Source: Candidatus Multivoradales bacterium (lineage in GTDB: Bacteria > Acidobacteriota > Thermoanaerobaculia > Multivoradales > Multivoraceae). From it: DNA of 64,000 nucleotides. The stretch lies in the NCBI GenBank assembly GCA_965223325.1, contig CBDCWI010000001.1, positions 320,001 to 384,000 on the forward strand, written 5' to 3'. A program made the translations under genes and the position numbers. The notes beneath the pieces were generated by a model. The model had not been told where the DNA came from and ran no database searches. It saw only the letters and a list, made by a program, of their open reading frames with translations. This document shows positions 31,007-47,654 of the stretch, piece after piece; within the stretch, counting starts at the first letter, position 1, and each line of letters starts with the position of its first letter.

Positions 31007-31077
31007 ACGCCCTCCTCTCCCGGGCTCATCGCGCAAGCCACATCGCAAGCCACCATCCCGACTAGGAAATCGCAGCC

Positions 31078-32547
<1,470 letters not shown>

Positions 32548-32562
32548 CCCTTCGAGCTTCGA

Positions 32563-33999
32563 TCACTCGCCGGCGCGGGCCGCCCTCGCTGCCTGGAAAG
32601 AGTCCAGGAAAGCATCGTGAAGGGCCTCCGCCGAGCCGCTCTCGAGCTTGAAGTAGAACTCGTTGGGCCGCGGCCCACGGCGCAGGTAGGAGTACCGCCG
32701 CGGGCTACGCTCCCGCCGCCCCACCAGGTACATCCACACATCGTCGATGGCGCGCAAGAAGCGCACCCGTGCGCCTTCCGGCGGCGTGGGATGAAAGGGC
32801 CGTAGATCGTGCATGGCTTCGAGCGCCAGGACCTTGCGGCGCCGCGTCTCCTCATCGAGAGCGAGCGAGAACACACCGCCATGAACCAACTCGGGTGAGC
32901 TGGCAAACCAGGGCGGCGCCGAAGCGACCGCGGTGGCGGGGCCAAGCGGATAAGGCTCTGCCGCGACTGGATGGTTGGTATAGAGCAGAAGAGTTCCAGA
33001 CCAGCCACTCTCGATCACCGCCTCGAGCAGCGCAACGGTCGTGAACTGGTGGTCGGCGTGCGCATCGAGCTGCGGATGCGGCGCCGCGATGACCTCAGGA
33101 GCCGCACGTTCGAGCTCGGCGCGCAACTCGCGCACCAGGCCCGGCCAGCTCGATTCAAACGACCGTGCTTGTACTTCCTGATCGACGTTCCAACCTCGAT
33201 AGTGATCGGGGCGCGGTAGATCGGCGTACGGCGGCGGGACCTTCTCGGGGCGCTCGAGCCAGAGCTGGCGCACGGTGGCGTCGTAGAAGCCGAGGTTGCG
33301 GGCGCGCTCCGCCGGCACCCCACCCACCCGGGGCACCGTGACGCTGTCCCAGGTGCGCACTTCGCCCTTGACGCGGAACTGTTCTCTGTCGTCTTGCCAA
33401 AGCGCCCTGAAGTTGCGGCCGCCGGCATCTCCCGCAGTCACCGTAACGACGGTTGCATCGGTGGTGGCGTAGAAACCGAACGCAGCAATCTCGGCGTCAT
33501 CGGGATGGGGCGCGATGACCAGGGTCGGCGTGCTCCGCTCGAGAGGGACATCGTCAAACAGCAGCAACCGAGAACTGCCCGAGCTCCAGCCAACGCCCCG
33601 GCCTTCGAGCTCGATGCGCTTGGGCGCTTCACCAGGAGCATCGAACAACGCGGTGAGGTTCAAGTAGCGGCGGCCACTCGACCCGCTGGCCAGGTGTTGG
33701 CGGCCGTTCTCCTGGCCAGCCCGCCACAAGATCGCCGGATCGAGATCGGGCACAAGGCCGCGTGGACGAACGTCGAGCTCGAGCAGCGCGGTGCCGGCAA
33801 AGTTGCCCAGGGCGGCCGGCACGTCGACACCCGCGCCGTCGATCGCGACCTCGACCGACGAGAAGCCGCGCGCCTCTCTGAGGCCGATGTCATGCGAGTT
33901 CGCAGGATCGTGGCGGAGGAAAGCGCGCGGCGCCAGCGCCCGCTCACAGAGCATGGCAACGGTCGCAACGACCGCAACCACGATGAAGACCTGACCCAT
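32563..33999 (-). CDS. PIG-L family de-N-acetylase (DnpA-like architecture)
   Basis: VIAPHPDDAEIAAFG, PHPQLDAHADH; N-terminal TM. Confidence 0.85.
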   Translation of the reverse strand: MGQVFIVVAVVATVAMLCERALAPRAFLRHDPANSHDIGLREARGFSSVEVAIDGAGVDVPAALGNFAGTALLELDVRPRGLVPDLDPAILWRAGQENGRQHLASGSSGRRYLNLTALFDAPGEAPKRIELEGRGVGWSSGSSRLLLFDDVPLERSTPTLVIAPHPDDAEIAAFGFYATTDATVVTVTAGDAGGRNFRALWQDDREQFRVKGEVRTWDSVTVPRVGGVPAERARNLGFYDATVRQLWLERPEKVPPPYADLPRPDHYRGWNVDQEVQARSFESSWPGLVRELRAELERAAPEVIAAPHPQLDAHADHQFTTVALLEAVIESGWSGTLLLYTNHPVAAEPYPLGPATAVASAPPWFASSPELVHGGVFSLALDEETRRRKVLALEAMHDLRPFHPTPPEGARVRFLRAIDDVWMYLVGRRERSPRRYSYLRRGPRPNEFYFKLESGSAEALHDAFLDSFQAARAARAGE

Positions 34000-34092
34000 T
34001 GTTGGGCACTCTTTCGAAGGGTCATAGCGAGCGGTTCCCATCCTCGGCCGTCCGTTCCTCTCGAGTTGTTCGGGCGTTCGGTCGCTCTCACT

Positions 34093-34908
34093 CTAAACCG
34101 TTGCGATGTCGCGCCTCCTGAACCACCAGAACGACAGGCCGAAGAACACGATACCCACCAGCGACAAGACAACAAGGTGGGCGGTTTCGGCACGGCCTGC
34201 CTCAAGAATCGGCTGCGGCTGATACCAGTGAAAGACCGAAAGCGGGTCGAGCGGCTCGGCTCGCGACCACAACCCGGCGATCAGGTGGACGAAGAACGAG
34301 ACCACCAGGAAGCCCAGCGAGCGCGCCACCGCGACGCCCTGCTCCCTGGCCGTCGCCGAGAAGAACGTCACCACACCGCCTACCGCGAAGAAGAGAAGCC
34401 ACAGGTTGAGGAGCACCCAGCGATAGGGAGCGACCGGATCAGGGGGATCGAGTTCGGCGATGCCGAGGCCGACATGCATGCACGTCCAGACGACCAGCGT
34501 CATGGTGGTGAGCACAACGAGCACGTAGAGAACCAGCGCGGCGACCAACTGCCAGCGTGCCACCGGGCAGGCGAGCAGCACATCGATCGTGCCGCGGTCG
34601 ATCTCCCCGGCCAGGGTGCGCGCCGCCACCGCCACCAGGAGAACCGAGAACATCGTCATCACCAGCGGGTGCACGAACAAGGTCACCAGCCACTGATCGA
34701 GCGGCGTCAAGCCAGCCAGGAGGCCCCCGAACATGCTCGAGATCAGCTCCGGCGACAGCCTGGTCATGACCTCGACGTTCATCTCGCCGAAAGTCACGAA
34801 CAGGTAGGAACCCAGCCCAACGAAGAGCGCCGCCAGAGCGTGGCAGAACATGAGCGTGGCCCGCTGTTCGAGCAGGATCTTGCGAAACAGGAGAGCCAGA
34901 ACACGCAC
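34093..34908 (-). CDS. ABC-2 type permease
   Basis: LAGEIDRGTIDVLLACPVARW, FRRRDI; six TM. Confidence 0.9.
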   Translation of the reverse strand: MRVLALLFRKILLEQRATLMFCHALAALFVGLGSYLFVTFGEMNVEVMTRLSPELISSMFGGLLAGLTPLDQWLVTLFVHPLVMTMFSVLLVAVAARTLAGEIDRGTIDVLLACPVARWQLVAALVLYVLVVLTTMTLVVWTCMHVGLGIAELDPPDPVAPYRWVLLNLWLLFFAVGGVVTFFSATAREQGVAVARSLGFLVVSFFVHLIAGLWSRAEPLDPLSVFHWYQPQPILEAGRAETAHLVVLSLVGIVFFGLSFWWFRRRDIATV

Positions 34909-35885
34909 TAGCTCTCGCCTTCTGCGGGCTCGCGATAGTGGTCGAAGAACACTTCTTCGAGGGTCAATGGATCCATGCGCACGTCGAGAGGTGGGCAGTC
35001 ACGAAGCGCAGCCAACATCGGGCCCGCTTCACCGCGAATGCCGAGCGACACCTCATTCGAACCCGAACAGGCGCGGTCCGGTGACACGCGAGGCTCGAAG
35101 CCAGCGGCCACCAGGGCACGCACGCCGGCTTCGGGATCGCCGAAACGCAGCACGACCCGGCGCGATTCGAGACGATCCAGCTCGTCGACTGCGCGCACGT
35201 CGAGAATGCGCCCGTGGCGGATCATGGCAACGCGATCGCACACCTTCTCGACTTCGCTCAGTACATGAGACGAGAAGAAGATCGCCCGCCCTCGCCCCCT
35301 GAATTCGCGCAGGAGCTCGTAGAACGCTTCCTGGACTAGCGGGTCGAGTGCCGAAGAAGGCTCGTCGAGAATCAGAAGGTCCGGATCGTGCATCAAGGCC
35401 AGGGTGATGCCGAGCTTCTGCCGGTTGCCCTTTGAGTAGGTCTTGACCCGCCGTTCGAGATCGAGACCGAGATGCTCGGCGATCCGCGCTGCTCCGGCTC
35501 GGCTCTCGCACGCAGGGCGGCCACCGCCGGCGGCTCGCAGTCGCGCCATCTCGACCACGATCTCGCGGCCAGCCCTCGCTTCCCAGAGGCGCACATCGCC
35601 AGGAAGAAAACCAACCCGACGACGGACGGCAACCGACTCGTGCCAGGCATCCAACCCCAGAACTCGCGCTCGGCCCGCCTCCGGGCGGAGGAGCCCGAGC
35701 AGCAGGCGAATGGTGGTCGTCTTACCGGCTCCGTTCGGGCCGAGGAAACCAAAGACCTCGCCTCGAGCGACCTCGAGATCGACACCATCGACCGCCCGCA
35801 CGACCTGGCTCTCGCCGGCGGGCGCACGACGACGGCGAAAGGTGCGGGTCAGCCCCTCGAGGGCCAGCGCAGGATCATCGGCCAT
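34908..35885 (-). CDS. ABC transporter ATP-binding protein
   Basis: GPNGAGKTT, YSKGNRQK, ILDEPSSALD. Confidence 0.95.
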   Translation of the reverse strand: MADDPALALEGLTRTFRRRRAPAGESQVVRAVDGVDLEVARGEVFGFLGPNGAGKTTTIRLLLGLLRPEAGRARVLGLDAWHESVAVRRRVGFLPGDVRLWEARAGREIVVEMARLRAAGGGRPACESRAGAARIAEHLGLDLERRVKTYSKGNRQKLGITLALMHDPDLLILDEPSSALDPLVQEAFYELLREFRGRGRAIFFSSHVLSEVEKVCDRVAMIRHGRILDVRAVDELDRLESRRVVLRFGDPEAGVRALVAAGFEPRVSPDRACSGSNEVSLGIRGEAGPMLAALRDCPPLDVRMDPLTLEEVFFDHYREPAEGES

Positions 35886-35935
35886 GACCTCTGCAGGCTA
35901 GCTCGAAACGCAGTCCCAGCGCTCGGTGTGAACGC

Positions 35936-36445
35936 CTAGCGGGCCGCCGCGTTGCGCAGCTCTTTGACGAAGTCTTCCGCCTCGAGCAGGCGTGCACCAC
36001 CGTCCGCAGTGCGCTCCATGCGGGTTACGCGCGAAATCGTCTTGGTACGTGAACTGTGCATGAACAGCGAGGGGTAACCCTGCACGCCATACATGTCTTT
36101 GAGCTGTACTTCGGCACGGCCGTTCTCGGCGTTGATACGCACCGCGATGATGTCGTCCATGTAGTCGTCGACCAGTTCCTCGGTCATCATCACGCGATCG
36201 AACTGCTGGCAGTAGCCGCACCAGGTGGCGTAGAAGTAGACGAACATCGGCTTGCCGGTTTTCTTCTGCTCCTCCATCGCTTGACCCATGCCCTCGGCAT
36301 TCTCGTACCAACCCGTCCAGTCGGGCTTGCCGTCACCGGCGGCCGTCGCCTGACTGGCAGACACGAGGACCGCACCGAGCATGAGAAGAGCGCCAAGCAG
36401 TGAAAGGCTGCGGTGGCGGGCGTTGGGTTCTGGATTCTGAGGCAT
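35936..36445 (-). CDS. Exported thioredoxin-family protein
   Basis: Signal peptide; YFYATWCGYC, YGVQGYP. Confidence 0.88.
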   Translation of the reverse strand: MPQNPEPNARHRSLSLLGALLMLGAVLVSASQATAAGDGKPDWTGWYENAEGMGQAMEEQKKTGKPMFVYFYATWCGYCQQFDRVMMTEELVDDYMDDIIAVRINAENGRAEVQLKDMYGVQGYPSLFMHSSRTKTISRVTRMERTADGGARLLEAEDFVKELRNAAAR

Positions 36446-36634
36446 GAGAGCGGTGTTCCTTGTGAGGCAGAGACCTTCGGGCAACGGCAGCGTGTGGTTG
36501 CTGGTTCTAGGCCGGTTCGGAGTCGGAGACGGAGGTGAAGAAACTGGGGCTGGTGTTGACCCGCCTCAGGACAAACGTCGGCCGGCGGCCATCTGTTCCC
36601 AGATCAGGCCAACAATCCATGAATTCTAGCAAAA

Positions 36635-38350
36635 CTAGCGAACTTGTCCGTTGTTCTTCGGACGCCCGGCCTTCGATCGCGAGTGGATCTGAGCGCCCGT
36701 CGGCCCGGGAAGCAGGCGGCGCCCATCGGCCAGGCGCCCCTCGGCGGCTTCGATCATCTCTTGCAGACCGAGCCGCCTGGTGGCCGAAACGGCCACCCCA
36801 TCGAGTTGGTGGGCAAGCGCCTGGGCTTCGTTCCAGCCGATGAGATCGGCCTTGTTCAGAACCAGGAGCCGCGGCACATCGCCGAGTCCGAGCCGCTCGA
36901 GCAGTTCGCGCACAGTGTCACGGCGAGCATCCAACCGGTCATCCGAGGCATCGACGACATGCAGCAGGAGATCGGCGTCGGCGAGTTCCTCGAGTGTCGC
37001 CTGGAAGGCCTGCAGAAGATCTTCGGGCAGCTCGGCGATGAACCCGACCGTGTCGGTGATGACCACTTCGCCCTCCCGCGGAAAGCGCAGTCGGCGACTG
37101 GTCGGGTCGAGAGTCATGAAGAGCTTGTCCGCTGCTTCGATGTCGCTGTTGGTCATCGCGTTCAAGAGGGTGCTTTTGCCGGCGTTGGTGTATCCAACGA
37201 TCGACAACACCGGGATCGAGCTCTCCCGGCGACGTCGGCGCCGCAGGTCACGCTGCTTGGAGAGCTTGCCGATCTCCTTCTCGAGCCTTCGGATGCGATC
37301 GTTGATGCGGCGGCGCCCGATCTCGAGCACCGTCTCACCAGGCCCACGACCACCAATGCCGCCCGCCAGTCGTGAAAGGCCGGCGTCTTTCTCGGTCAGC
37401 CGGGGCAGCGAGTAGCGCAGCTGCGCCAGCTCGACCTGCAACTTGCCATCACGGCTGCGAGCGCGCTGTGCGAAGACATCGAGAATCAACTGGGTGCGGT
37501 CGATCGTCTTGAGACCCGTCGCGTCTTCGAAGGCGCGCGCCTGAGCGGGCCTCAAATCGACATCAAAAATCGCCACGGTTGCAGAACGCCGCATGCCTTC
37601 GAGCACGATCTCGGTCAACTTGCCCTTCCCCACCACCGTCTTGGGGTGGAGACGCGAGCGCTTCTGACGCATGGTGCCAGCCACCTCGACATCCGCCGAG
37701 CGCACGAGTTCGAGGGTCTCCGCGAAGTGTTCGTCGTCAGGCTGCACGCCCAACACCAGGGCGCGTTCGCGCTCAACGCCATCTGCCCTTCCGCGAGCCA
37801 GCCTCGCGAGCTCAGCCTCGAGAGCCTGAATGGTGGCGTCGAAATCGAAGTCGAGACGGAAGAGGTCTGGCGCTTCGATGCGATCGAACGGTGGCGCATC
37901 GGCATCGACCTGCCCGTCGCCCAGGTCGACATGCGGCGCGAGATGTGCCAGCTCAACCCGACCAGGCTCGCCCTCCTCAGCCACCTCGATCATTGCCACC
38001 AGGTCAAGGCGCAGAAGCGCCAGGTCGTTTAAATCGTCAGCTGTCAGCGGCTCACCGCGCAGGTGGGTGTGCACCAGCCGCAGGCCACGAAAACGCCCAG
38101 TACCCCCGCGCAGGCGGCCAATGTCAGGAATCTCGAGAGTCGACGCGTCGCCAACGATCACGTCGCGAATGCTGCCCTCGCGAGCAATCAGAACGCCAAC
38201 CTGGCGCCCGATTTCATGCGAGATCGAAACCAGGTGGCGGGCCAACTCAGGCGAGACCAATTCGCCCGGTGCGACTTTGCGTCGGTAGGTGCGTTCGAGC
38301 GCCCGGCGCTCTGAAGCCTTGAGGCCCTGGGTGTTTCCGTGGATGTTCAT
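36635..38350 (-). CDS. hflX: GTPase HflX (long N-terminal form)
   Basis: [37 protein letters not shown]. Confidence 0.95.
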
Positions 38351-38455
38351 TCGCGACCGGCGATGGTACCAGTGCAGGCCATCCCTGTGTCGCCCGCACA
38401 GTATTATCCTCCTCACCTCTTCTGCCAAAGAAGGCTCGTTCGAGAAAACACGCCG

Positions 38456-39658
38456 ATGACCACTCCTCACCCTGAGCCCTGCCGCGGCCTACTCACCAAA
38501 GGTCTCGAAGAGGAGGTCTACACCGGCACCGCCGACGGCGAGGTGGTCGGCCTGTCGCACGAGATCTCGAAAGCTCTGGTCGGTTTCACCACCGAGCCCG
38601 ACTCCCGCAACGTCGAGTTCACCACCGCGCCGTACCGCGACTACGACCTGCTGCTCGACCGGCTGATGACCAAGCGCTGCCAACTGCGCCGCTGGCTAGA
38701 AGCCCGTGACTACACCCTGGTTCCCGGCAGCACCCTGTCGCTCGCCAAGCCTGGCGACTTCCAGATCTCGGACGAGAACAAGCTCTACTACCGACAGATT
38801 CGCGACACCTACGGCACCGACGTCGTCACCGCCAGCACCCACATCAACGTCGGCCTACCGGACACGGTCGAAGAAGCACACTACGAAACGATGATGCGCG
38901 CCTGGCGCCTGGCCCGAGTGGACGCACCCATATTCCTCGCCCTCACCGCCGCCTCGCCATTCCTGGGCGGCGAGGCCACCGGCTTCCACTCCACCCGCTG
39001 GCACGTTTTTCCACCAACGCCAGAGCACGTCCCCTTCTTCGCCGAGCACCAGCCTTACGTCACCTGGTTCGACGCTCAGCTCGAAGCCGGTACCATGTTC
39101 AACTCGCGCCACCTCTGGGTCGCCGCACGCCCCAACGGCCCGCAGCCCCCACGCGATCTCAACCGCCTGGAACTGCGCATCTGCGAACGCATCTCCGAAC
39201 CACTCCGTATCCAGGCCCTCGTCGCCCTCTTGGAAGCCCGCGTCTGGCAACTAGCCGCCGACCCCGAACTAGACCCCCTCTCCCCCGCCTACTCGAACGG
39301 CAAAACCACCGAAGAGCGCTCGAACGAACTCGTCGAACTCTGCCGACACAACGAAGCCGCCACCGCACGCGACAGCCTGGAAGCAACAGTGTTGGACTGG
39401 CGCACCGGCAAAGACATCAAGATGCGCGACTGGATCGACCGTCACCGCGACGAAGTCTCCCCACACGCCACCGCCCATTGCTTCGCAGACCGACTAGAGC
39501 CTCTCGACGAAATCCTCGAACACGGCAACCACGCCCAACGCTGGCTCGAGTGGCACGCCAACGGAATGTCGGTAAGCAGCATCATGCGCAAAGCCGCCGA
39601 AGAGCAACTAGCCGCCGACTGGAAGTACGACCCCGCCTGCTCCCAGATCGCCCCGTAG
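38456..39658 (+). CDS. gshA: Glutamate--cysteine ligase, cyanobacterial type
   Basis: LLTKGLEEEVYTG..GEVVGLS, EPDSRNVEFTT, VVTASTHIN, SPFLGG, RHLWVAARPNGP, LNRLELRIC; near gshB and gor. Confidence 0.88.
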   Translation: MTTPHPEPCRGLLTKGLEEEVYTGTADGEVVGLSHEISKALVGFTTEPDSRNVEFTTAPYRDYDLLLDRLMTKRCQLRRWLEARDYTLVPGSTLSLAKPGDFQISDENKLYYRQIRDTYGTDVVTASTHINVGLPDTVEEAHYETMMRAWRLARVDAPIFLALTAASPFLGGEATGFHSTRWHVFPPTPEHVPFFAEHQPYVTWFDAQLEAGTMFNSRHLWVAARPNGPQPPRDLNRLELRICERISEPLRIQALVALLEARVWQLAADPELDPLSPAYSNGKTTEERSNELVELCRHNEAATARDSLEATVLDWRTGKDIKMRDWIDRHRDEVSPHATAHCFADRLEPLDEILEHGNHAQRWLEWHANGMSVSSIMRKAAEEQLAADWKYDPACSQIAP

Positions 39659-39727
39659 GCACGACCTCACCCGGCGACGCAACGTGCGAAGCACGAGCGT
39701 GAGCCAGCAACCTGAAGAACACCACCA

Positions 39728-39876
39728 GCGATCGGGGCCAACACGCCGCGGCTCAACGGTTCACGTCATCCGAGAAGCGCGATGTGCGAAGCACGAGCGC
39801 GGCCCCGCCCCCAACAAACGACCGTCAACCCGGAAGGTCCCAAGGGTCGGAACGGGGGGTGTGCGCCAGGGAGCGG
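39728..39876. repeat. Palindromic repeat unit, copy 1 (second hairpin closes at ~39903)
   Basis: ~149 bp nearly identical to 39930-40077; period ~201 bp. Confidence 0.95.
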
Positions 39877-39929
39877 CGCAAAAGGCGCACAGCCCCCGAT
39901 CCCACGTCCCCAACCAAAGAGCGCCGCTT

Positions 39930-40190
39930 GCGATCGGGGCAACACGCCGCGGCTCAACCATTCACGTCATCCGAGAAGCGCGATGTGCGAAGCACGAGCG
40001 CGGCCCCGCCCCCAACAAACGACCGTCAACCCGGAAGGTCCCAAGGGTCGGAACGGGGGGTGTGCGCCAGGGAGCGGTCAGCCGCCAACCAACAGCGCCA
40101 AGCAAACGCGGTGGTCAATGACCAAACCCGAGCACCAAACAGCCACATCCATGAAGCGGCGCGGAAGGCGCACAGCCCCCGTTTCGACCC
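39930..40190. repeat. Palindromic repeat unit, copy 2, with 82 extra bp in the hairpin loop
   Basis: Arm gggtcggaacggggggtgtgcgcc (40045-40068) pairs with ggcgcacagcccccgtttcgaccc (40167-40190). Confidence 0.9.
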
Positions 40191-40257
40191 GACGCCGTCC
40201 CCATCCCTACCGACCAATCAACCAATCAACCAACCAAGAAAACGCAGCCCAAGAAAG

Positions 40258-41031
40258 TCAACGCCCAGAAAACCGAGGCTCCCGCTTCTCCTGAAAAGCC
40301 GCAATAGCCTCAGCAGTATCAGAAGTAGAAAAGTTGACGGTCTGCGCCATCCCTTCGGATTCGAGCGCCTGATGAAGACTAGAAGTCAACCCATCGTTGA
40401 GCAGCCGCTTCGTCATCTTGAGAGCCAGCGGCGGCCCTGCTGCAAGCCGCTGGGCCCACTCATCAACGAAACCATCGAGCGCATCGGTAGGAACCACCCG
40501 GTTGACGATACCCAACCGCTCCGCCTCGACCGCGTCGATAATCTCACCGAACAGAGCCAGCTCCTTCGCCTTGTGAATACCCACGAGGCGCGGCAACAAC
40601 CACGACCCACCAAAGTCGATCGACAGCCCTCGACGCGCGAAAATCTCCGAAAAACGCGCACGCTCCGAAGCAACGATCAAATCGCAGCCAAGCGCCATGT
40701 TGAGGCCGGCGCCTACCGCCACACCATCGACCTTGGCGATCGTGGGAATCGCCACCTGGTGGAGCGCCATCGCGACCTGCGTAATATCGTGCATGCGATC
40801 GAGCTGGTGCTTGGAGACCTTGCGACCTTCGGGGCTGAGATCGGCGCCGGCGCAGAACTCACCACCCGCGCCGGTGATCACGGCAACGCGATCGCTCGGG
40901 TCGTTGCCGAGAGTGCTCCACACGTCCAGAAGCTCGTTCCACATCACACCATTGACGGCGTTCTTGCGCTCTGGACGGTTCATCGTGATGGTGACGACAC
41001 CATCGTTCCGGTCGACGATCAGGGTTTCCAC
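40258..41031 (-). CDS. Enoyl-CoA hydratase/isomerase
   Basis: MNRPERKNA, FCAGADL, IAKVDGVAVGAGLNMALGCDL, AFQEKREPRF; GTG start with GAGG RBS. Confidence 0.95.
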   Translation of the reverse strand: METLIVDRNDGVVTITMNRPERKNAVNGVMWNELLDVWSTLGNDPSDRVAVITGAGGEFCAGADLSPEGRKVSKHQLDRMHDITQVAMALHQVAIPTIAKVDGVAVGAGLNMALGCDLIVASERARFSEIFARRGLSIDFGGSWLLPRLVGIHKAKELALFGEIIDAVEAERLGIVNRVVPTDALDGFVDEWAQRLAAGPPLALKMTKRLLNDGLTSSLHQALESEGMAQTVNFSTSDTAEAIAAFQEKREPRFSGR

Positions 41032-41091
41032 TAGCCTCGCTCCTCTGGTGGGTGAGTTGGGCCGCCAAGCTAACAGATGGATCCCGAGCGC

Positions 41092-41637
41092 CTACGGGGC
41101 CTGCTCGACCGACCGGGCACGCTCCACAGCACGAACCAGCTCGCGGAGCTCGGGCTCCGGTTCGCCGATGGCCCGGAGCGCATGGTAGAGCTCGACGACG
41201 TAGGCGACGTTGTTGCCGCTCGGACCATGGGCGCTTTGGATCTGTGTCGCCATCTCTTCATAAGAAGTCGGGCCGAGCCAGTTCCTATTCTCCGGCGTGG
41301 CAACCCAGGTGATCGCCTCGACCTCCTGCGGGGCGCCCGCGCCCAGGAGATGCAACCTCACGTCCAGACGGCGGTAGCCTCCCTTCTCACGATGATCGAG
41401 CGCCGCCAGGGTCCGCGCGGCGTTCAGACCGAGCCGGTACGCCACACCGAGGTTCGACGCCCCCGGATCTTCGATCAACGTCACAACCCTCCCCGGAGCA
41501 CCCGGTACCCCGCGATGGTCGGTCGATCCCTGCCAGAAGCGTCGCGCCCAGCCGTCCAGCCTTGCCGGGTGTCGTTCTTCGAAGTCGAAGTCCGGTCGCC
41601 AGACCAGGGAACCGTAGCCGTAGACCCACACGTTCAT
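41092..41637 (-). CDS. chaC: Glutathione-specific gamma-glutamylcyclotransferase (ChaC)
   Basis: WVYGYGSLVW, FWQGSTDHRG..PGRVVTL, LDHREKGGY, GPSGNN. Confidence 0.92.
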   Translation of the reverse strand: MNVWVYGYGSLVWRPDFDFEERHPARLDGWARRFWQGSTDHRGVPGAPGRVVTLIEDPGASNLGVAYRLGLNAARTLAALDHREKGGYRRLDVRLHLLGAGAPQEVEAITWVATPENRNWLGPTSYEEMATQIQSAHGPSGNNVAYVVELYHALRAIGEPEPELRELVRAVERARSVEQAP

Positions 41638-41702
41638 TTCCAAATCCTAGGAGTGAACCGAAGAAACATCCAGGCGTCCACGCCCGCTATCATCCCCTCG
41701 CC

Positions 41703-42662
41703 ATGCGACATCTCTTCATCATCGACCCGCTCGAGCGCTTGCTGCCAGACGCCGACACCACGATCGTCTTCATGCGGGAAGCGCAGAAGCGCGGCTACGA
41801 AGTCGCCACCTGTGAGGTCACCGACATAGGCCTCGACCGTGGAGTTCCCTACGCCGCCTGCCAGCGCGTTTCCCTGAGAGCCCCCGGCAACGAGCCCTGG
41901 TTTGAAAGAGACGGTGAAAGAACGCGAGCCGTACTTTCTGAATTCGACGCGGTCTGGATGCGCAAAGATCCGCCGTTCGACATGGACTTTTTCTACGTCA
42001 CGCACCTCCTGTCGATGATCGACGGCAAGACTGTCGTCGTCAACGATCCAGCAGCACTGCGTGACGCCAACGAGAAGTTGTTCGCGCTGCGCTTCGCTGA
42101 GTATTGCCCCGACACATTGGTCTCGCGTGACATGGCGGAGATCACTGCCTTTCGCGACAGCCTGGGCGGCGAGTGTGTCGTCAAGCCACTCGACGGCGCC
42201 GGCGGCGAGGGCGTTTTCCACCTCGCCCCTGGTGACCGTAACGTTGGGGCGATTCTCGAAAGCTCGACCGCCCATGGCACGCGCTACCTGATGGCGCAGC
42301 GCTACGTCCCCGAGATCCGCACTGGTGACAAACGCATCATCCTGGTCGAAGGCGAGCCTCTGGGCGCCGTTCTGCGAGTGCCCACCGACGAGGACGCACG
42401 CGCCAACTTTCACGCTGGCGGCGCCGCAGCCAAGACCGAGATCACGGCGCGCGAGCGGGAGATTTCCGCCGCCATGGCACCAATGCTGCGCTCGATGGGA
42501 ATCGTGTTCGCTGGCATCGATGTGATCGGCGACTGGTTGACCGAAGTCAACGTCACCAGCCCGACTGGCATCCGTGAGATTGCCCGTCTCGATGGCGTGC
42601 ACCTCGAAGAGGCCGTCATGGATGCTGTCGAGACCCGGGTCCGCGAGAGGCAACGATCGTAG
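41703..42662 (+). CDS. gshB: Glutathione synthetase
   Basis: WMRKDPPFDM, NEKL, KPLDGAGGEGVF, GDKRI, GIDVIG..LTEVNVTSPTG. Confidence 0.96.
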   Translation: MRHLFIIDPLERLLPDADTTIVFMREAQKRGYEVATCEVTDIGLDRGVPYAACQRVSLRAPGNEPWFERDGERTRAVLSEFDAVWMRKDPPFDMDFFYVTHLLSMIDGKTVVVNDPAALRDANEKLFALRFAEYCPDTLVSRDMAEITAFRDSLGGECVVKPLDGAGGEGVFHLAPGDRNVGAILESSTAHGTRYLMAQRYVPEIRTGDKRIILVEGEPLGAVLRVPTDEDARANFHAGGAAAKTEITAREREISAAMAPMLRSMGIVFAGIDVIGDWLTEVNVTSPTGIREIARLDGVHLEEAVMDAVETRVRERQRS

Positions 42663-42708
42663 GCCGGCGGCTCATCCTGGCTCCCCCTGGCCTGCAGCAG
42701 GCAGCGCG

Positions 42709-43446
42709 ATGAATCGTCGTCGCCTCCAGTGGCTCGGTGTCGCGCTCGCGATCGTGGTGGCTATGGTCGCCTTCACTCGCTTTGGCGGGCCCGAGGCGGT
42801 AAGGGTGCTGCTCGATCGGGTGGCGACCATGGGGCCGGCTGGGCCGGTGCTGTTTGCGCTCTTGCATGCTCTTTCGGTTGTCGTTCTCTTGCCGGGAGCG
42901 GTATTTCCGCTGGCGGCGGGCTTTCTGTTCGGAGTCGGGACCGGATCGGTCGTGGCACTGGCGGGCAAGCTGATCGGCGGTAGCGTTTCGTTCTGGTTGG
43001 CGCGCACGCTCATGCGCCACCGGGCCGAAGAGATGCTGGCCAATCCGGAAACGCGCTTGGCAAGAAGTCTTCGCCGGGTCGACCACCATCTCGCCGACGG
43101 GGGTTGGTTTGCGGTCTTTCTGATTCGCCTGGTGCCGGTGATTCCATACAAGGCGTCCAACTACATCTTCGGCGCCTCGCGGTTCAGCTATCGTCACTTC
43201 CTGCTCGGTACCGCTCTCGGCGCCGCACCGTGGGCGGTGTTCGATGCCTGGGTGGGTTCGCTAGGGCGAAGCGTCGCCGACCTCGACCCGGCGCTCTTGC
43301 CGTCGACACCGGGCCAGTGGATCGCCTGGGGCATCGCAGCGATCGTGATGGCCGCCGCTGCCGTCTTGCTGTTCAGGCGGCTGCGCCAGGTTCTATCCAC
43401 GCCGGTCGGCGACGCCTGGGCCGCCAGGAGAGGCGAGGACGGGTAG
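42709..43446 (+). CDS. TVP38/TMEM64 (DedA/SNARE-associated) membrane protein
   Basis: LPG..LAAGFLFG, LIRLVPVIPY..SNYIFG. Confidence 0.9.
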   Translation: MNRRRLQWLGVALAIVVAMVAFTRFGGPEAVRVLLDRVATMGPAGPVLFALLHALSVVVLLPGAVFPLAAGFLFGVGTGSVVALAGKLIGGSVSFWLARTLMRHRAEEMLANPETRLARSLRRVDHHLADGGWFAVFLIRLVPVIPYKASNYIFGASRFSYRHFLLGTALGAAPWAVFDAWVGSLGRSVADLDPALLPSTPGQWIAWGIAAIVMAAAAVLLFRRLRQVLSTPVGDAWAARRGEDG

Positions 43447-43542
43447 GAGAATCGGCGAGACCGGATCCCGGGGGTGCGCTGGAGGTGGCGTAGGATCACT
43501 CTCCCTCCCTCCCTTCTCTCGACCTTCGTTCAGGAGACCTCG

Positions 43543-44940
43543 GTGGCCAACTCCGCCTCACCCACGTCGCGCTACGACTACGACCTGATCTGCATTGGTG
43601 CCGGTTCGGGAGGTGTGCGCGCATCGCGCTTCGCCGCCTCCTACGGCGCGCGCGTTGCCGTCATCGAAGACGGTCCGCTCGGTGGTACGTGCGTCAACGT
43701 GGGATGCGTTCCCAAGAAGCTCTTCTACTACGCCTCGCGGTTGCATCACGACGCAGGTCTTCTACCCGATTTCGGGTGGGAGGCTTCGCAACCTGCCTTC
43801 GACTGGTCACGGCTGATCCAGAACAAGAACCAGGAAATCGCCCGCCTCAACGGGATCTATCGACGCATTCTCGCGGGCGCAGGGGTCGAGATCATTCTCG
43901 GCCGCGGACATATCGAAGGCCCGAACACCGTCAGCGTCGGCGAAACGACGCTCAGCGCACGCTACATCCTGGTGGCCGTCGGCGGGCGGCCCTGGATGCC
44001 AGACTTTCCAGGAAGCGAGCAGGCGATCGTCTCCGACGCGGCGTTCTATCTCGAAGAGATGCCGGAACGTGCCCTGGTCGTTGGCGGCGGCTACATTGGG
44101 GTCGAGTTTGCCGGGATCTGGAACGGGCTCGGAGCCCAGGTCACTCAGGTCTACCGCGGTGAAATGTTTCTTCGTGGCTTCGATGGCGACGTGAGATCGG
44201 CCCTCGCTCTAGAGATGCAGAACAAGGGCATCGACCTGCGCTTTCACACCGAGGTCACGGCAATCGTCCGCCAGGCCGACGGCTCGCTCCGCGCAACGCT
44301 CAGTTCAAAGGATCGCGACGACGAAGAACTCGACGTCGATCTCGTGCTCTACGCCACCGGTCGCGTCCCGCGCACCGACGACCTGGGGCTCGAAAACACC
44401 GCCGTCCGGGTGGGTGCGCGCGGCTTCATTGAAGTCGACGACCAGCTTTGTACCGCGGAGCCCAGCATCTACGCCATCGGCGACTGCATCGAGCGGCCAT
44501 TCGATCTCACTCCAGTTGCCCTCCACGAAGGCATGGCTGTTGCCGCGACCCTCTTTGATGATCGCCCGACCAGTCCCGAGTACGACAGCATCGCCACCGC
44601 CGTCTTCAGCCAACCACCGATCGGTACCGTGGGTCTGACAGAAGAAGAGGCACGCGAGCGCTTCGGTGCCGACAACATCGAGATCTATCGCAGTCGCTAC
44701 CGCGCCTTGAAGCTGACCTTGGGCGACGATCCCGAGCGCTCGCTGATGAAACTCGTCGTCGACCGCGGGAGTCGTCGCGTTCTAGGAGTGCACGTTCTCG
44801 ACTCCGACGCCGCTGAGATCGTGCAGGGCTTCGCCGTCGCCGTAAAGATGGGGGCCACCAAAGAACAACTCGACGCCACGATCGGCATTCATCCAACATC
44901 GGCGGAAGAGCTCGTGACCCTACGCGACCCGGTCAGCTGA
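43543..44940 (+). CDS. gor: Glutathione-disulfide reductase
   Basis: GAGSGG, GGTCVNVGCVPKK, GGGYIGVE, IGIHPTSAEE; AGGAG plus GTG. Confidence 0.95.
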   Translation: MANSASPTSRYDYDLICIGAGSGGVRASRFAASYGARVAVIEDGPLGGTCVNVGCVPKKLFYYASRLHHDAGLLPDFGWEASQPAFDWSRLIQNKNQEIARLNGIYRRILAGAGVEIILGRGHIEGPNTVSVGETTLSARYILVAVGGRPWMPDFPGSEQAIVSDAAFYLEEMPERALVVGGGYIGVEFAGIWNGLGAQVTQVYRGEMFLRGFDGDVRSALALEMQNKGIDLRFHTEVTAIVRQADGSLRATLSSKDRDDEELDVDLVLYATGRVPRTDDLGLENTAVRVGARGFIEVDDQLCTAEPSIYAIGDCIERPFDLTPVALHEGMAVAATLFDDRPTSPEYDSIATAVFSQPPIGTVGLTEEEARERFGADNIEIYRSRYRALKLTLGDDPERSLMKLVVDRGSRRVLGVHVLDSDAAEIVQGFAVAVKMGATKEQLDATIGIHPTSAEELVTLRDPVS

Positions 44941-45083
44941 GAGTGAGCGCGCTGGGGCCCGCTACACTGTGCGAGCGATTGACTTCGGCCGACCTCCTAC
45001 CGCACTTCTCTCCACGAAATACCGGTCTCTATGAATCACCGGCCGGCGGGTCGCTTGCACAGTGATTCTTTGCGGGAGTTGCC

Positions 45084-47036
45084 ATGAACCGTTCTCCGCT
45101 GATCGTCCTCGGACTTCTTTTCCTCGCCGTCGCTCTATCGGGTGTTTCGGCCGATGACTCGCCGGATCCCTCGAGCTGGACCAGCTATGGCGGCGACACC
45201 TGGAGTACGAAGTACTCTCCGCTCGACCAGATCGATGCGACCAACGTCAAGAAGCTCGAGATCGCCTGGCGTTGGGGCTCGCCAGAAAACGACCTTGTCG
45301 CCAAGGACCCCAAGTACCGCCCAGGGCTTTACGAAGCCACGCCCTTGTTCATCGACGGCGTTCTTTACACGGCGACGTCCCACAGCGGCATCGCGGCGAT
45401 CGACCCAGGGACCGGCAAAACGCTCTGGCATTTCGACTCCCTGAGCCAGGAAGGCGGCAGGCCTCCCAACCTCGGCTTCATCCATCGCGGGGTCTCTTAC
45501 TGGAGTGACGGTGAGGCGACGCGAATCTTCATTGGTACGGGCGACTCGCGATTGATCGCCGTCGATCACGTAACCGGTGAACCGATCGGCGAGTTCGGCA
45601 ACCAGGGAAGCGTGGACTTGAGCAAAGGCTTGCGGCGCCCAATCCCAAGGCGCTACTACGGCTTGAACTCCCCGCCGCTGGTTTGCGGCGATGTCGTGGT
45701 GACCGGTGCGACAATCGCCGACCTCGCCATCAGTCGCAACGCGCCCCCGGGCGATGTGCGGGGCTTCGATGTGCGCACGGGCGAACACCTGTGGACTTTC
45801 CACTCCATTCCGCAGGCCGGCGAGTTCGGCAACGAAACCTGGAAGAACGAGTCGTGGAAGGGCACCGGCAACACCAACGTCTGGAGCCTCATGAGCTGCG
45901 ACGAGGAGCTCGGCTACGTGTACCTCCCGTTCGGAACGCCAACCAGCGACTACTACGGAGGAGAACGTCACGGCGACAACCTCTTCGCCGAGAGCCTGGT
46001 CGCTCTGGACGTTGAAACCGGAGAACGCATCTGGCATTTCCAGGCCGTGCATCACGGAATCTGGGACTACGACTTTCCATGCGCGCCCAACCTCGTCGAC
46101 ATCACGGTCGACGGCGAGAGGATCAAGGCAGTCGCACAGGCGAGCAAGCAGGGGTTCATCTACGTCTTCGATCGCGTCACCGGCGAGCCGGTTTGGCCCA
46201 TCGAAGAGCGCAAAGTCCCTGCGTCTTCGGTTCCGGGCGAGAAGCTGTCGCCAACCCAGCCCTTCCCGACCCGCCCGGCACCTTTCGAACGCCAAGGAGT
46301 GAGGCCCGAAGACCTGATCGACTTCACGCCCGAGTTGGCTGCCGAGGCGCGCAAGATCCTCGCCGAGTTCGACTACGGTGAGCTCTTCGTTCCTCTCGGC
46401 ACAGGGCGACCGACGATGTACCTGCCTGGATGGCTCGGTGGTGCCAACTGGACGGGAGCCGCCGTCGATCCCGAGACCGGTGTTCTCTATGTGCCGTCGA
46501 TCACCAGCCCGATCGCCTTCACATTGACCGAAACCGACTCGAACCGCTCCGCGTTCCGCTATACCGCCACTCCTACTCCGGTTATCGGACCTGACGGCCT
46601 GCCGCTGTTCAAACCGCCTTACGGGCGGATCACCGCGATCGACCTCAACAGCGGCGAGCACCTTTGGATGTCACCGCTTGGCGACGGTCCGCGTGATCAT
46701 CCACGACTGGCCCATCTCGACCTTGGACCGCTGGGCGCTCCACAGCGGGGTGCGCCGCTCGTCACGAAGACTCTCCTGTTCGTGACCCAGGAAGGGACCA
46801 TCGGTGAGATCCGCTTCAGCGAAGACCTGCACGCGGCAGAAGCCGAGACCTTCACATCCGACCCAGGGCTGCGGGTGTTCGACAAGCAGAACGGAAACCT
46901 GTTGACCGAGATCGAACTACCGGCCAACGCGATCGCAGCGCCCATGACCTACCTCCACGAAGGCAAGCAGTACATCGCGGTGTCGATCGGCGGTGGCAGT
47001 CAGCACTCCGAGCTGGTTGCCCTGGCGCTACCTTGA
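45084..47036 (+). CDS. PQQ-dependent dehydrogenase (glucose/quinate DH-like, no N-terminal membrane domain)
   Basis: KYSPLDQI, EATPL, WHFQAVHHGIWDYD, KPPYGRITAID, PMTY..GKQYI. Confidence 0.9.
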   Translation: MNRSPLIVLGLLFLAVALSGVSADDSPDPSSWTSYGGDTWSTKYSPLDQIDATNVKKLEIAWRWGSPENDLVAKDPKYRPGLYEATPLFIDGVLYTATSHSGIAAIDPGTGKTLWHFDSLSQEGGRPPNLGFIHRGVSYWSDGEATRIFIGTGDSRLIAVDHVTGEPIGEFGNQGSVDLSKGLRRPIPRRYYGLNSPPLVCGDVVVTGATIADLAISRNAPPGDVRGFDVRTGEHLWTFHSIPQAGEFGNETWKNESWKGTGNTNVWSLMSCDEELGYVYLPFGTPTSDYYGGERHGDNLFAESLVALDVETGERIWHFQAVHHGIWDYDFPCAPNLVDITVDGERIKAVAQASKQGFIYVFDRVTGEPVWPIEERKVPASSVPGEKLSPTQPFPTRPAPFERQGVRPEDLIDFTPELAAEARKILAEFDYGELFVPLGTGRPTMYLPGWLGGANWTGAAVDPETGVLYVPSITSPIAFTLTETDSNRSAFRYTATPTPVIGPDGLPLFKPPYGRITAIDLNSGEHLWMSPLGDGPRDHPRLAHLDLGPLGAPQRGAPLVTKTLLFVTQEGTIGEIRFSEDLHAAEAETFTSDPGLRVFDKQNGNLLTEIELPANAIAAPMTYLHEGKQYIAVSIGGGSQHSELVALALP

Positions 47037-47052
47037 AGTGCAGTGGGGGGAG

Positions 47053-47412
47053 CTAGCTGCTCTTCTTGCCTTTGAAAGTGCCTTCGCCGACCTGGCCGTA
47101 GTCGCAGGTGCCCTCCATCTCGTCACCTGAGATCGTGCCCTTGTAGGTCACCGTTCCGGCTTGTGACTCGAAGGAGAACGCGATGGAGTTGCCGTCGACC
47201 GTGCCGGAAACCTCAGCGTCGCCGAGCTGGCCCTGGTAGGTCCCGGTTACCTTGCCGCCATCTTCTTCGGCGAGCTTGAAGGTCGCGTCACCACCCTGGC
47301 CGCCCAGGTCGACCGATAGCACCCAGGTGCCATCGACGTGGTGTGAGGCGATTGCAGCGCCGGCTGCGAACAGTAGGAGAACCGAGAACAGGAGAACGAT
47401 TGCTTTCTTCAT
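47053..47412 (-). CDS. Small secreted beta-rich hypothetical protein
   Basis: GAGGAG RBS; signal peptide MKKAIVLL; VDGTW..GKVTGTY pattern. Confidence 0.8.
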   Translation of the reverse strand: MKKAIVLLFSVLLLFAAGAAIASHHVDGTWVLSVDLGGQGGDATFKLAEEDGGKVTGTYQGQLGDAEVSGTVDGNSIAFSFESQAGTVTYKGTISGDEMEGTCDYGQVGEGTFKGKKSS

Positions 47413-47654
47413 GGCTTGACTCCTCGAGAGACGACCGGGCGAGATAAGAGCCCAGCAGGGGGTGTTCATGGGAACGCCTAACGAGACTAGCGCAGACCGA
47501 ATCGCGCCCCCGCACCGAACCCTAAACTCCGCAGTCGGGGGGAGTCTCCCAGTGGGCCGACTGGCTGTCTGCGGTGCGAGGGTTGAAACTTGTGGGACTC
47601 TGGGGAGTCTCTACTTCAGTCCCGCTTCCCCCCGGCTGTCCTCAGGGAGTCCCC

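Follow-up and report, generated by a model that had tools for sequence, protein, structure and literature searches.

Strand-specific compositional halos in genes flanking a dispersed hairpin-rich repeat of a Candidatus Multivoradales bacterium

Most copies of a hairpin-rich repeat in the genome of Candidatus Multivoradales bacterium (assembly GCA_965223325.1) adjoin ordinary genes in which, over up to about 1.5 kb, silent sites are shifted towards A and C on one strand, and this observation is both real and general. The element is associated with a neighbouring substitution regime under which the element strand gains A and C at the expense of G and T. This bias peaks at the element, where its scaled strength S is ~1.1 per silent site, it decays over ~1 kb on the side of the hairpin units and over ~0.4 kb on the side of a microsatellite, and it is independent of the orientation of the neighbouring genes. 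The best reading, which we put forward tentatively and at somewhat less than even confidence, is that the element anchors a field in which DNA damage or repair differs between the strands.

The halo was first noticed in a window of 64,000 nt (positions 320,001 to 384,000 of contig CBDCWI010000001.1; coordinates below are those of the window unless prefixed by a contig handle), where the + strand is A/C-rich over ~38.5–40.7 kb and is a genome outlier at z 4.4–4.8. The A+C content of the + strand peaks at 0.635 per 1000 nt (z 4.4; as high in 12 of 21,431 intervals of contig C1) and at 0.6225 per 2000 nt (z 4.8; matched by 5 of 21,421 C1 intervals), which confirms the claim of an earlier note on this DNA that the + strand is rich in A and C near the repeat whatever the gene orientation. 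Over ~38.7–40.8 kb the AT skew of the + strand is +0.28 to +0.55 and its GC skew is −0.10 to −0.37, so that the minus strand is G-rich across 38.6–40.7 kb. As a whole the halo occupies 38460..40690, with A/C enrichment of the + strand at every codon position and most of all at silent sites, and it reaches ~1.2 kb to the left and ~0.43 kb to the right of the element with equal polarity on both sides. Contigs from four public runs of one study that cover 31000–50000 are interrupted solely within the tandem repeat and contain no differences in the halo; the skew is therefore not an assembly artefact.

The gene on the hairpin-unit (5′) side of the element is a gshA-like gene of glutamate-cysteine ligase family 2 (38456..39658, + strand; Pfam GCS2, E 2.4e-44), which lies entirely within the halo. 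A and C are enriched at its silent sites, above all between codon 151 (~38906) and the stop codon, and third-position A+C over codons 151–400 is 0.74–0.86 versus 0.46–0.55 in nine orthologues. In line with the earlier description of its 3′ part as having many A-ending and few T-ending codons, the third bases of codons 201–400 are C in 122 cases, A in 37, G in 34 and T in 7, with CTA and GCA used four times each and CAA three times. A codon-usage gene caller skipped gshA and called an antisense ORF (38855–39250) instead. Convergent with gshA is an enoyl-CoA hydratase gene (40258..41031, minus strand; Pfam ECH_1, E 2.2e-59), of whose final 24 sense codons 15 end in T, nine in G and none in C or A, a recount identical to the figures first given. 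Runs of at least 24 G/T-ending codons occur in 4 of 4,683 called genes, the hydratase included, and two of the other three (ThrRS and C2:1420516) also adjoin repeats of the same kind. A change point at 141 codons divides the hydratase gene into a 3′ part with third-position G+T of 0.78 (the last 423 nt) and a remainder at 0.48 (LRT 24.9): the last 141 codons (40261–40683) are G/T-ending, and the 5′ part is normal. Three hydratase orthologues have G+T of 0.26–0.56 over the corresponding part, and gshA and the hydratase are 1.47 Mb apart in a genome of the same genus.

Between the two genes lies a ‘type B’ copy of the composite repeat (39660..40199, + strand; repeat families D1–D4). Read on its A/C-rich strand, the element combines small hairpin units in tandem with a long hairpin and an A/C microsatellite. 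The window copy contains three 31-nt hairpin units with the core GTGC-GAA-GCAC (39678–39708, 39778–39808 and 39979–40009), two 142-nt direct copies of 98% identity (39735–39876 and 39936–40077) and two stem-forming segments (39866–39905 and 40149–40188), all on the + strand. The repeat had been described as palindromic. This is true of the small GTGC-GAA-GCAC hairpin and of the longer-range stems; the 142-nt copies and the 31-nt units make the repeat mainly direct, and the repeat tool returned no inverted pairs. At its 3′ end an A/C-rich, microsatellite-like tail (ccaatcaaccaatcaaccaacc...; 40200..40257, + strand) abuts the hydratase stop codon. With 25 A, 23 C, 6 G and 4 T among its 58 bases it is as poor in G and T as had been noted, and A/C-only tails also follow copies C1:313776, C1:1058803 and C1:1548974. 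The + strand of the window element folds at −234.3 kcal/mol (z −3.0). Across the genome the element measures ~400–1000 nt, of which a hairpin of ~290 nt covaries (52 of 113 pairs, nine copies); in each of the nine copies this long hairpin forms a better fold on the G/T-rich strand, with 72 G-U pairs versus 30.

The 14-mer core has 33 exact matches genome-wide, in 17 clusters that are all intergenic between called genes, and an 11-mer has 37 matches against ~0.8 and 1.7 expected per strand. An exact 22-mer motif is matched 30 times in this genome and not at all in 56 other genomes of the family. Rfam gave no credible match in the window region at E ≤ 1, none in 12 other copies at E ≤ 0.1 apart from tRNAs adjoining one copy, and none in eight loci of other phyla; a scan for promoter and terminator consensus sequences was uninformative. 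A 20-nt motif is repeated in records of Flexilinea, Granulicella, Acutalibacteraceae, Amycolatopsis and Saprospiraceae. These records have no repeat-centred peak like the one described here, and we rejected the idea that the halo is a property of the 20-nt motif itself. In Amycolatopsis, elevated A+C extends from ~200 nt ahead of the motif to 1 kb beyond it, the matches being one orthologous locus across species. Seven Chloroflexota and three Acidobacteriota matches inside conserved genes look like chance.

We then collected 17 copies of the element by sequence similarity alone and measured third-site composition in their flanks. The codon-usage gene caller used at first was replaced because it is biased by the halo itself, and genes for the halo statistics were called with a caller blind to the choice between C and G and between A and T at third positions. 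On the hairpin-unit side, third-site A+C on the element strand is.699 within 500 nt versus.536 expected (z 14.4, 17 copies) and.626 at 500–1000 nt (z 9.3), and returns to the baseline farther out. On the microsatellite side it is.565 versus.500 within 400 nt (z 5.3). The field thus decays away from the repeat copies, as was proposed for the window. When the window copy is left out, the remaining 16 copies still give z 13.2 and 8.7 on the hairpin-unit side and 3.6 on the microsatellite side, while 1000 control sets of 16 random gaps have a mean z of 0.52 (sd 1.52) and a maximum of 4.9. Of the 14 copies measurable within 500 nt on the hairpin-unit side, 10 reach z ≥ 3.5 and none is clearly negative.

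The expectation that every copy would have a halo, with polarity following repeat orientation, is borne out for polarity and for the 10 strong copies out of 14, and fails at individual loci: copy C1:56528 is without a halo, C2:3912231 reaches just z +1.0, and on one side of the fragment C2:1345791 the sign is reversed (z −4.1). These three loci argue against a damage or repair field. Taken together, the 14 full copies agree in sign between their two sides, at z +9.5 and +9.3 for one and +8.1 and +3.5 for the other, which led us to reject two-sided break resection. Three short fragments situated among other copies do change sign, with a polarity opposite to that of 5′–3′ resection. At 16 of 17 loci the element strand is the A/C-rich (lagging) strand of its replichore; the sole copy oriented against its replichore, C2:1352300, keeps a halo of its own polarity (z +3.9). 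Furthermore, a 454-codon BamB-like gene is bounded at either end by copies of opposite orientation, and its sense A+C climbs from.28 to.72; in homologues from four loci of three relatives (two of them tandem paralogues in one genome) it is flat at.48–.60. Polarity that follows the element, flips within one gene and is kept by C2:1352300 is incompatible with a replication-fork model, which we rejected. Since genes of both orientations are affected and there is no general gene-end gradient, the genes’ own transcription and codon adaptation were rejected as well.

Could the element be a bystander, inserted into already skewed DNA, or could the skewed stretches be horizontally acquired patches? 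The closest genome (same genus) has ~72% DNA identity, and the best relative among metagenome contigs has 54–63% protein identity over partial stretches; relatives so distant leave room for such an account. We consider it very improbable: the gradients are centred on and oriented by the copies at no fewer than 10 unrelated loci, the skew reverses inside a gene that has a copy at each end, and gene ends in general are not a source of such patches. Moreover, the gene parts concerned are orthologues by vertical descent; in the hydratase, for example, the skewed C-terminal half aligns with the same-genus orthologue at least as well as the N-terminal half does, as judged by eye. Six genes (gshA, ECH, ThrRS, BamB-like, CitMHS and RsgA) deviate solely near the element and in the predicted direction, and in relatives without the exact motif the orthologues are flat in 6 of 6 cases, the outcome anticipated if the repeat is tied to the bias. 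On these sequence comparisons, the bias is derived and local.

The two sides of the element differ in their spectra. At 4-fold sites on the larger, hairpin-unit side, the frequency of G is.154 instead of.354 and that of C is.585 instead of.417, GC content stays near constant, and the background C:A and G:T ratios are kept. In simple equilibrium models a single parameter favouring A/C over G/T fits this composition (goodness-of-fit G 2.2–4.2), and boosted G>A plus T>C fits it badly (G 13–33). The fitted S is 1.15 and 1.10 for genes of the two orientations (G 2.2 and 2.4), an equality not easily explained by selection acting on each gene’s own mRNA. Constant GC and preserved C:A and G:T ratios are what one-parameter fixation bias or selection predicts, and this counts against the damage or repair field.

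The same composition is reproduced, in both gene orientations, by a different kind of selection, namely selection to keep RNA of the element-strand sense A/C-rich and free of pairing; G and U would then be purged from it over ~1.5 kb around the element. A sequence of A and C only cannot pair with itself, and the benefit may lie in Rho loading and translocation or in protected folding of the element’s hairpins. We regard this, the main rival to the damage or repair field, as possible but rather unlikely. Consistent with it, the A/C-only tail has a composition like that of a Rho-utilisation site, the genome carries rho, and the halo extends farther in genes that share the element’s orientation (S.71 and.29 between 300 and 1200 nt) than in opposite genes (.39 and.14). 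The microsatellite-side halo stops rather abruptly at 423–435 nt in two genes, as a transcript end might. Halos are weak at loci with a gap between the element and the upstream gene, one such gap holding a terminator-like hairpin. Uncalled (non-coding) sites on the 5′ side are unskewed (A+C of.46–.50), which would speak against a damage or repair field, but as they come almost entirely from loci with gaps of at least 277 nt whose genes also have a weak halo or none, this comparison of mutation with selection is confounded. Against transcript selection, U is depleted as strongly as G, a loss that Rho binding does not need, and the halo lies mostly in translated genes or antisense to essential ones such as ThrRS, where a benefit at the RNA level is not obvious. 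An S of ~1 per site hundreds of nucleotides away is also large for an insulation effect, and transcript selection does not account for the microsatellite side as well as a mutational G>A spectrum does.

On that shorter side, 4-fold GC drops to.68 and G>A is boosted 3–4.6-fold, and the G>A mutational spectrum fits at G 0.0–3.7 versus 7.3–19.9 for the one-parameter A/C bias; this matches mutation pressure overriding codon preference. The earlier note had proposed C>T and A>G deamination of the minus strand. For the microsatellite side, with its G>A-dominated spectrum, the proposal can hold; for the larger side it is insufficient, given the net shift from G to C and the poor fit (G 13–33) of transitions there. 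Among 243 polarised halo sites, G>A accounts for 74 and G>C for 37, and transversions make up a large share of the change.

Under the damage or repair field that we favour, the cause would be a strand asymmetry at the level of DNA: the G/T-rich strand would be recurrently unpaired, or would be the strand whose lesions become fixed. Damage to the amino bases C and A on this strand would yield the substitutions, and damage to the other strand would be erased. Plain spontaneous deamination (C>T and A>G) could suffice on the microsatellite side; an additional C>G and A>T component would be needed on the hairpin-unit side, for instance through A or C being copied across abasic sites. One candidate for the exposure is a G/U-rich transcript through the element that forms an RNA:DNA hybrid on the A/C-rich strand, and another is repeated nick- or hybrid-primed resynthesis of one strand. 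At 15 of 19 loci the microsatellite side of the element meets the end of a gene carried on the G/T-rich strand, so that transcription in that sense would enter the element, and the minus strand of the window is G-rich over hundreds of nucleotides, as in R-loop-prone zones. Heavy transcription alone does not make halos, since the flanks of 51 tRNA genes are shifted by merely.02–.035 and those of the single rRNA operon not at all; we therefore rejected strong transcription as a sufficient cause. Gene 3′ ends in general have no such gradient, and 5′ ends shift by.03–.045 over the first 50 codons.

A dedicated enzyme acting at the repeat had also been suggested, either a trans-acting HUH protein (RAYT/TnpA-like) that nicks and unwinds the DNA or a targeted deaminase that edits the minus strand. 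The genome has 28 Y1_Tnp matches, the most among 26 genomes of the family (0–13 in the others), and the near-uniform orientation of the copies relative to replichore skew recalls the orientation bias known for IS200/IS605-type single-strand transposition. The hairpin core contains GCGAAGC, described in PMC13037366 as an extraordinarily stable DNA mini-hairpin. Yet the predicted arrangement, a HUH or deaminase gene flanked by the repeat, was not found: the nearest Y1_Tnp ORF is 18.1 kb (18,121 nt) from any of the 19 element loci, and none of the five CDA-fold ORFs (searched with two deaminase Pfam families) lies beside a copy of the core motif. Of the two CDA-fold ORFs that we inspected, one resembles a guanine deaminase, within a purine-catabolism cluster, and the other a dCMP deaminase. 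One guanine-deaminase-like ORF does lie beside a different G/T-rich tandem repeat, which we judged a coincidence (~5% by a rough estimate). Moreover, C>T on the G/T-rich strand has no 5′ or 3′ neighbour-base preference (n = 74; 21/56, 16/48, 19/61 and 18/76 by 5′ base), and transversions are prominent. An enzyme of this kind is accordingly very improbable in our view. The lack of a HUH gene or an obvious DNA deaminase adjoining any copy is also counted against the damage or repair field.

Several known systems share features with the halo. In vertebrate mitochondrial DNA, silent-site composition tracks the time that one strand stays single-stranded; there too G+T enrichment on one strand is graded, affects silent sites, is independent of gene orientation and is attributed to strand exposure. 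That pattern, however, reflects how an entire small genome is replicated and is dominated by C>T and A>G, whereas the halo is local (~1.5 kb), sits on dispersed repeats, follows their orientation and has a large G-to-C component. Transcription-related bias has the sign of the halo if the G/T-rich strand is the non-template strand, and is likewise of kilobase scale and decaying. The halo differs in ignoring the neighbouring genes’ own transcription and in its size: tRNA and rRNA flanks in this genome have at most a tenth of the effect, and halo third-site A+C of.74–.82 is far larger.

REP/RAYT systems and hairpin MITEs derived from IS200/IS605 resemble the element in their short conserved hairpins, their many intergenic copies, often in tandem and between convergent genes, their strong orientation bias with respect to replication and the presence of Y1/HUH genes in the genome. 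The element, in contrast, has no Y1 gene flanked by repeats, and it is ~400–1000 nt long with its covarying hairpin and microsatellite tail. REPs carry a conserved GTAG tetranucleotide at the 5′ foot of the hairpin, which on reading is absent from the conserved unit here. We know of no compositional halo around REPs, and our literature search found none reported. Rut sites resemble the element strand in being C-rich, G-poor and unstructured, a likeness that is closest in the tail (C 23, G 6 of 58), but they comprise ~80 nt of untranslated RNA, and the halo is ~1.5 kb, mostly coding and depleted of U as much as of G. RIP is a premeiotic fungal process in which C>T changes occur only in a dinucleotide context and leak from repeats into neighbouring genes. 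Like the halo, it produces a repeat-anchored mutational field that extends ~1 kb into single-copy neighbours; unlike RIP, the halo has no context preference, includes transversions and has a bacterial host. More generally, it lacks the dominance of transitions with a preferred neighbour base that marks deaminase hypermutation (APOBEC-like kataegis, deaminase toxins and RIP).

Bacterial substitution models assume that replication, with a weak contribution from transcription, sets strand bias. The bias tied to this dispersed repeat exceeds the replichore skew several-fold (third-site A+C of.70–.78 versus.54), enters essential genes such as ThrRS and makes a codon-usage gene finder miss gshA. Our search of the literature found neither a repeat-anchored halo in bacteria nor a paper on the motif. 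If the cause is mutational, the repeats mark a strand that is habitually unpaired or resynthesised and would be a new source of local heterogeneity in mutation rate and spectrum; if it is selective, a structured element can constrain the silent sites of its neighbours over a kilobase. With either cause, halos can mislead tests for horizontal transfer, codon adaptation and dN/dS. Going further, and more speculatively, the composite repeat may be the cis-acting site of an undescribed bacterial process. Candidates are a stable RNA:DNA hybrid and a nick in one strand from which the neighbourhood is resynthesised repeatedly, and either would subject one strand of the 1.5 kb around the element to damage and repair of a different kind; we think this possible but rather unlikely. 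Were it true, host genes beside the copies would evolve under strand-specific substitution rules of their own, and the system would be a prokaryotic counterpart of RIP leakage or of immunoglobulin switch regions.

Over about 38.7-40.8 kb of the window the + strand shows an AT skew of +0.28 to +0.55 and a GC skew of -0.10 to -0.37, and its A+C content peaks at 0.635 per 1000 nt (z 4.4; 12 of the 21,431 windows of contig C1 are equally high) and at 0.6225 per 2000 nt (z 4.8; 5 of 21,421). The genome comprises 6.69 Mb on two contigs, C1 and C2, and the window corresponds to C1:320001-384000. At 39660-40260 (+) lies a composite repeat, hereafter the element: three 31-nt units with a GTGC-GAA-GCAC hairpin in two 142-nt direct copies, and after these a tail of A and C only. 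It is flanked by gshA (38456-39658, +), which encodes a GCS2-type glutamate-cysteine ligase, and by an enoyl-CoA hydratase gene (40258-41031, -); the spacer at 40200-40257 holds 25 A, 23 C, 6 G and 4 T. On recount, the final 24 codons of the hydratase end in T (15) or G (9), exactly as the earlier note had stated, and a comparable G/T-ending run is present in only 4 of 4,683 called genes. Codons 201-400 of gshA end in C (122), A (37), G (34) and T (7). We refer to this one-strand A/C shift at silent sites of flanking genes as the halo. Since its sequence is identical (0 differences) in contigs of four public runs, all from one study, an assembly or polishing artefact is ruled out. The halo distorts gshA codon usage, and because of this a codon-usage-based gene caller preferred an antisense ORF (38855-39250, -) over gshA, an error that automatic annotation may repeat. 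Separately, 2.4 kb from the element and beyond normally composed genes, a membrane-protein ORF (42672-43446, +) has a G/T-rich + strand at third positions, and its segment C1:362708-362972 is a genome-level outlier (z 4.9; AT skew down to -0.56).

There are 37 occurrences of the 11-nt hairpin core in the genome, where about 1-2 per strand would be expected. Similarity searches defined 19 element loci, and 17 of them were analysed after a contig-end region present twice and a fragment of 68 nt had been set aside; an element with its flanks is common to C1:55-58 kb and C2:2-5 kb, inverted and with nearly identical composition profiles, and the pair represents either a large duplication or overlapping contig ends. 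Fuller copies comprise tandem hairpin units (period 46, 91, 100, 157 or 201 nt), then a hairpin of about 290 nt (fold z -10.6) with compensatory changes at 52 of 113 predicted pairs in the nine copies compared, and finally an A/C-rich microsatellite whose sequence varies between copies. The long hairpin is predicted to be more stable on the G/T-rich strand in all nine (G-U pairs 72 vs 30). The A/C-rich strand of the element coincides with the A/C-rich (lagging) strand of the replichore at 16 of 17 loci, and at 15 of 19 a gene on the opposite strand terminates directly at the microsatellite. Rfam holds no matching family. The exact 22-nt motif has 30 matches here and none in 56 other genomes of the family, the same genus included, while a 20-nt version is repeated in records of several other phyla. 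This hairpin motif is identical to the letter inside differing repeat elements: it forms the apical part of a MITE-like hairpin at 17 sites in a Flexilinea MAG, occupies 8 sites in Granulicella paludicola, is arrayed in five tandem units in a Saprospiraceae MAG, in many Amycolatopsis species follows a promoter-like TTGACA, and is also found in an Acutalibacteraceae MAG. Such identity across distant phyla suggests a putative shared trans-acting partner.

To follow the halo across loci we used gene calls blind to the C/G and A/T choice at third positions, with expected third-site A+C set per replichore and gene strand. Pooled over the 17 loci, third-site A+C on the element strand was.699 against an expected.536 within 500 nt of the hairpin-unit side (z 14.4) and.626 against.537 at 500-1000 nt (z 9.3), returning to baseline beyond 1 kb; within 400 nt past the microsatellite it was.565 against.500 (z 5.3). 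With the window locus left out, the three z values were 13.2, 8.7 and 3.6, compared to a mean of 0.52 (sd 1.52, maximum 4.9) for 1000 control sets of 16 random intergenic gaps. Individually, z was 3.5 or higher at 10 of 14 measurable copies within 500 nt of the hairpin-unit side (minimum -0.1), and 2.2 or higher at 6 of 16 on the microsatellite side. A full copy 6.2 kb left of the window start (C1:313146-313800), between a 536-aa ORF without a Pfam match and an RsgA GTPase gene, is flanked to the left and right by a halo (z +3.8 and +3.3). Two further elements, at C2:1419500-1420600 and C2:453200-453800, repeat this composite architecture (tandem units of 46 nt, then a long hairpin and a microsatellite) but are devoid of the GTGCGAAGCAC core; their convergent neighbours are strongly skewed as well (third-site A+C.71, G+T.71). 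The halo is thus a property of the element family. The 14 full copies show one and the same polarity on both sides, which excludes two-sided resection at a break. A sign change occurs across three short fragments, C2:1345791, C2:1352300 and C2:3886310, all situated among other copies: they show an A/C excess on the hairpin-unit side and a G/T excess on the other, with a pooled z of -4.3 to -2.8 out to 2.5 kb in a small sample confounded by the neighbouring copies (-4.1 on the microsatellite side of C2:1345791).

We then compared sense A+C at third positions of six Pfam-confirmed neighbour genes with that of orthologues, each from the same genus or one of five others. The values were.20-.32 vs.55-.60 for the hydratase (final 150 codons),.74-.86 vs.46-.55 for gshA (codons 151-400),.20-.24 vs.42-.55 for a CitMHS transporter (final 150 codons),.30-.40 vs.50-.53 for RsgA (final 150-170 codons) and.18-.46 vs.47-.64 for ThrRS (codons 1-350), a gene antisense to the element whose start adjoins the hairpin-unit end. 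A BamB-like gene, with oppositely oriented element copies at its two ends, rises from.28 to.72 from 5' to 3' (orthologues.48-.60). Polarity is therefore set by the element and not by fork direction or the gene's own transcription, and judged by these sequence comparisons the halo is derived, local and element-oriented. The pooled loci and the six genes together support the earlier note's proposal of a repeat-anchored local field whose polarity follows repeat orientation. Replication polarity is excluded as the cause, since the skew follows the element; so are the genes' own transcription and codon adaptation, as both gene orientations are affected and gene 3' ends genome-wide show no halo-like gradient (5' ends in general shift by only.03-.045). 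Strong transcription is not a sufficient cause either, because the shift in the flanks of 51 tRNA genes is no more than.02-.035 and no halo surrounds the single rRNA operon.

We polarised silent differences against the orthologue consensus, expressed them on the element strand, and set the halos beside the remainder of the same genes. The counts in halos and remainder, respectively, were 74/243 and 67/340 for G>A, 37/243 and 35/340 for G>C, 6/243 and 10/340 for G>T, 10/215 and 30/313 for C>G, and 13/215 and 25/313 for C>T. At 4-fold sites on the hairpin-unit side, composition was A.119, C.417, G.354, T.111 (GC.77) at 2-4 kb and A.197, C.585, G.154, T.064 (GC.74) at 0-250 nt; at 0-200 nt on the microsatellite side it was A.243, C.409, G.267, T.082 (GC.68). 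Codon positions 1 and 2 shift less in the same direction (.505 to.559). Under simple equilibrium models, one bias parameter (A/C over G/T) fits the composition on the hairpin-unit side, with S 1.15 in co-oriented genes (G 2.2) and 1.10 in opposed genes (G 2.4); further out the bias weakens, S being.71 (co-oriented) and.39 (opposed) at 300-700 nt, then.29 and.14, respectively, at 700-1200 nt. A model with boosted G>A plus T>C, which corresponds to the minus-strand C>T and A>G deamination that had been proposed, fits this side far worse (G 17.6 and 13.3); on the microsatellite side boosted G>A (3- to 4.6-fold) is the better fit.

The enzymes suggested for such deamination are likewise not supported. 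C>T on the G/T-rich strand shows no neighbour-base preference, which excludes a context-specific deaminase, and none of the five CDA-fold ORFs found lies beside core-motif copies; the two inspected look like nucleotide-metabolism enzymes. As for a RAYT/TnpA-like HUH enzyme, the genome has 28 Y1_Tnp ORFs, the closest of them 18.1 kb from any copy. The hairpin units are reminiscent of REP/RAYT and IS200/IS605 MITEs, but the gene-repeat association that defines those systems is absent. The total of 28 is the highest among 26 genomes of the family, and Y1_Tnp ORFs of 320-360 aa form dense clusters near contig ends (C1:2.12-2.14 Mb, C2:4.45-4.49 Mb). The genome also contains 14 open frames of 539 aa, identical to one another and carrying a reverse-transcriptase domain (RVT_1, E 3.3e-39; e.g. 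C1:64188-64880), which probably belong to a recently active group II intron. Its top raw-skew outliers are two intergenic tandem repeats of extreme one-strand G/T richness, C2:4069500-4070740 and C1:856700-857300, one of which comes after a guanine-deaminase-like ORF that is part of a purine-catabolism cluster.

A rival reading, selection on a transcript of the element strand to stay A/C-rich and free of pairing, could also explain why one parameter fits and why GC content is conserved; it agrees with the A/C tail and the presence of a rho gene. Such selection, however, would have to work inside translated genes and antisense to essential ones, deplete U as strongly as G, and reach a per-site S of about 1; we rate it only a little below our best reading, given below. 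On the hairpin-unit side no skew is seen at non-coding sites, which would favour selection, but as a test of selection against mutation these sites are confounded, because nearly all come from loci with gaps of at least 277 nt whose genes also lack clear halos.

Vertebrate mitochondrial genomes show strand-asymmetry gradients arising from single-strand exposure, which the halo resembles in sign and grading, and in fungi RIP leaks from repeats, a likeness in that the halo, too, is anchored on repeats. Non-template strands, too, carry an excess of G+T that is similar in sign and grading, with GC-skewed R-loop zones, as described in PMC10030826. The literature searched, mostly at abstract level, gave no account of such a halo in bacteria and none of the motif. 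Our best reading, which we put forward tentatively, is an element-anchored strand asymmetry at the DNA level, R-loop and nick-primed versions included. It accounts for the smooth decay over a kilobase, the indifference to gene orientation, and the overridden codon preference with GC loss on one side. On the hairpin-unit side, C>G and A>T changes would have to arise by an additional route, e.g. insertion of A or C opposite abasic sites. The sign of the bias is as expected of such an asymmetry, in which the G/T-rich strand would be the exposed or lesion-fixing strand near the element.
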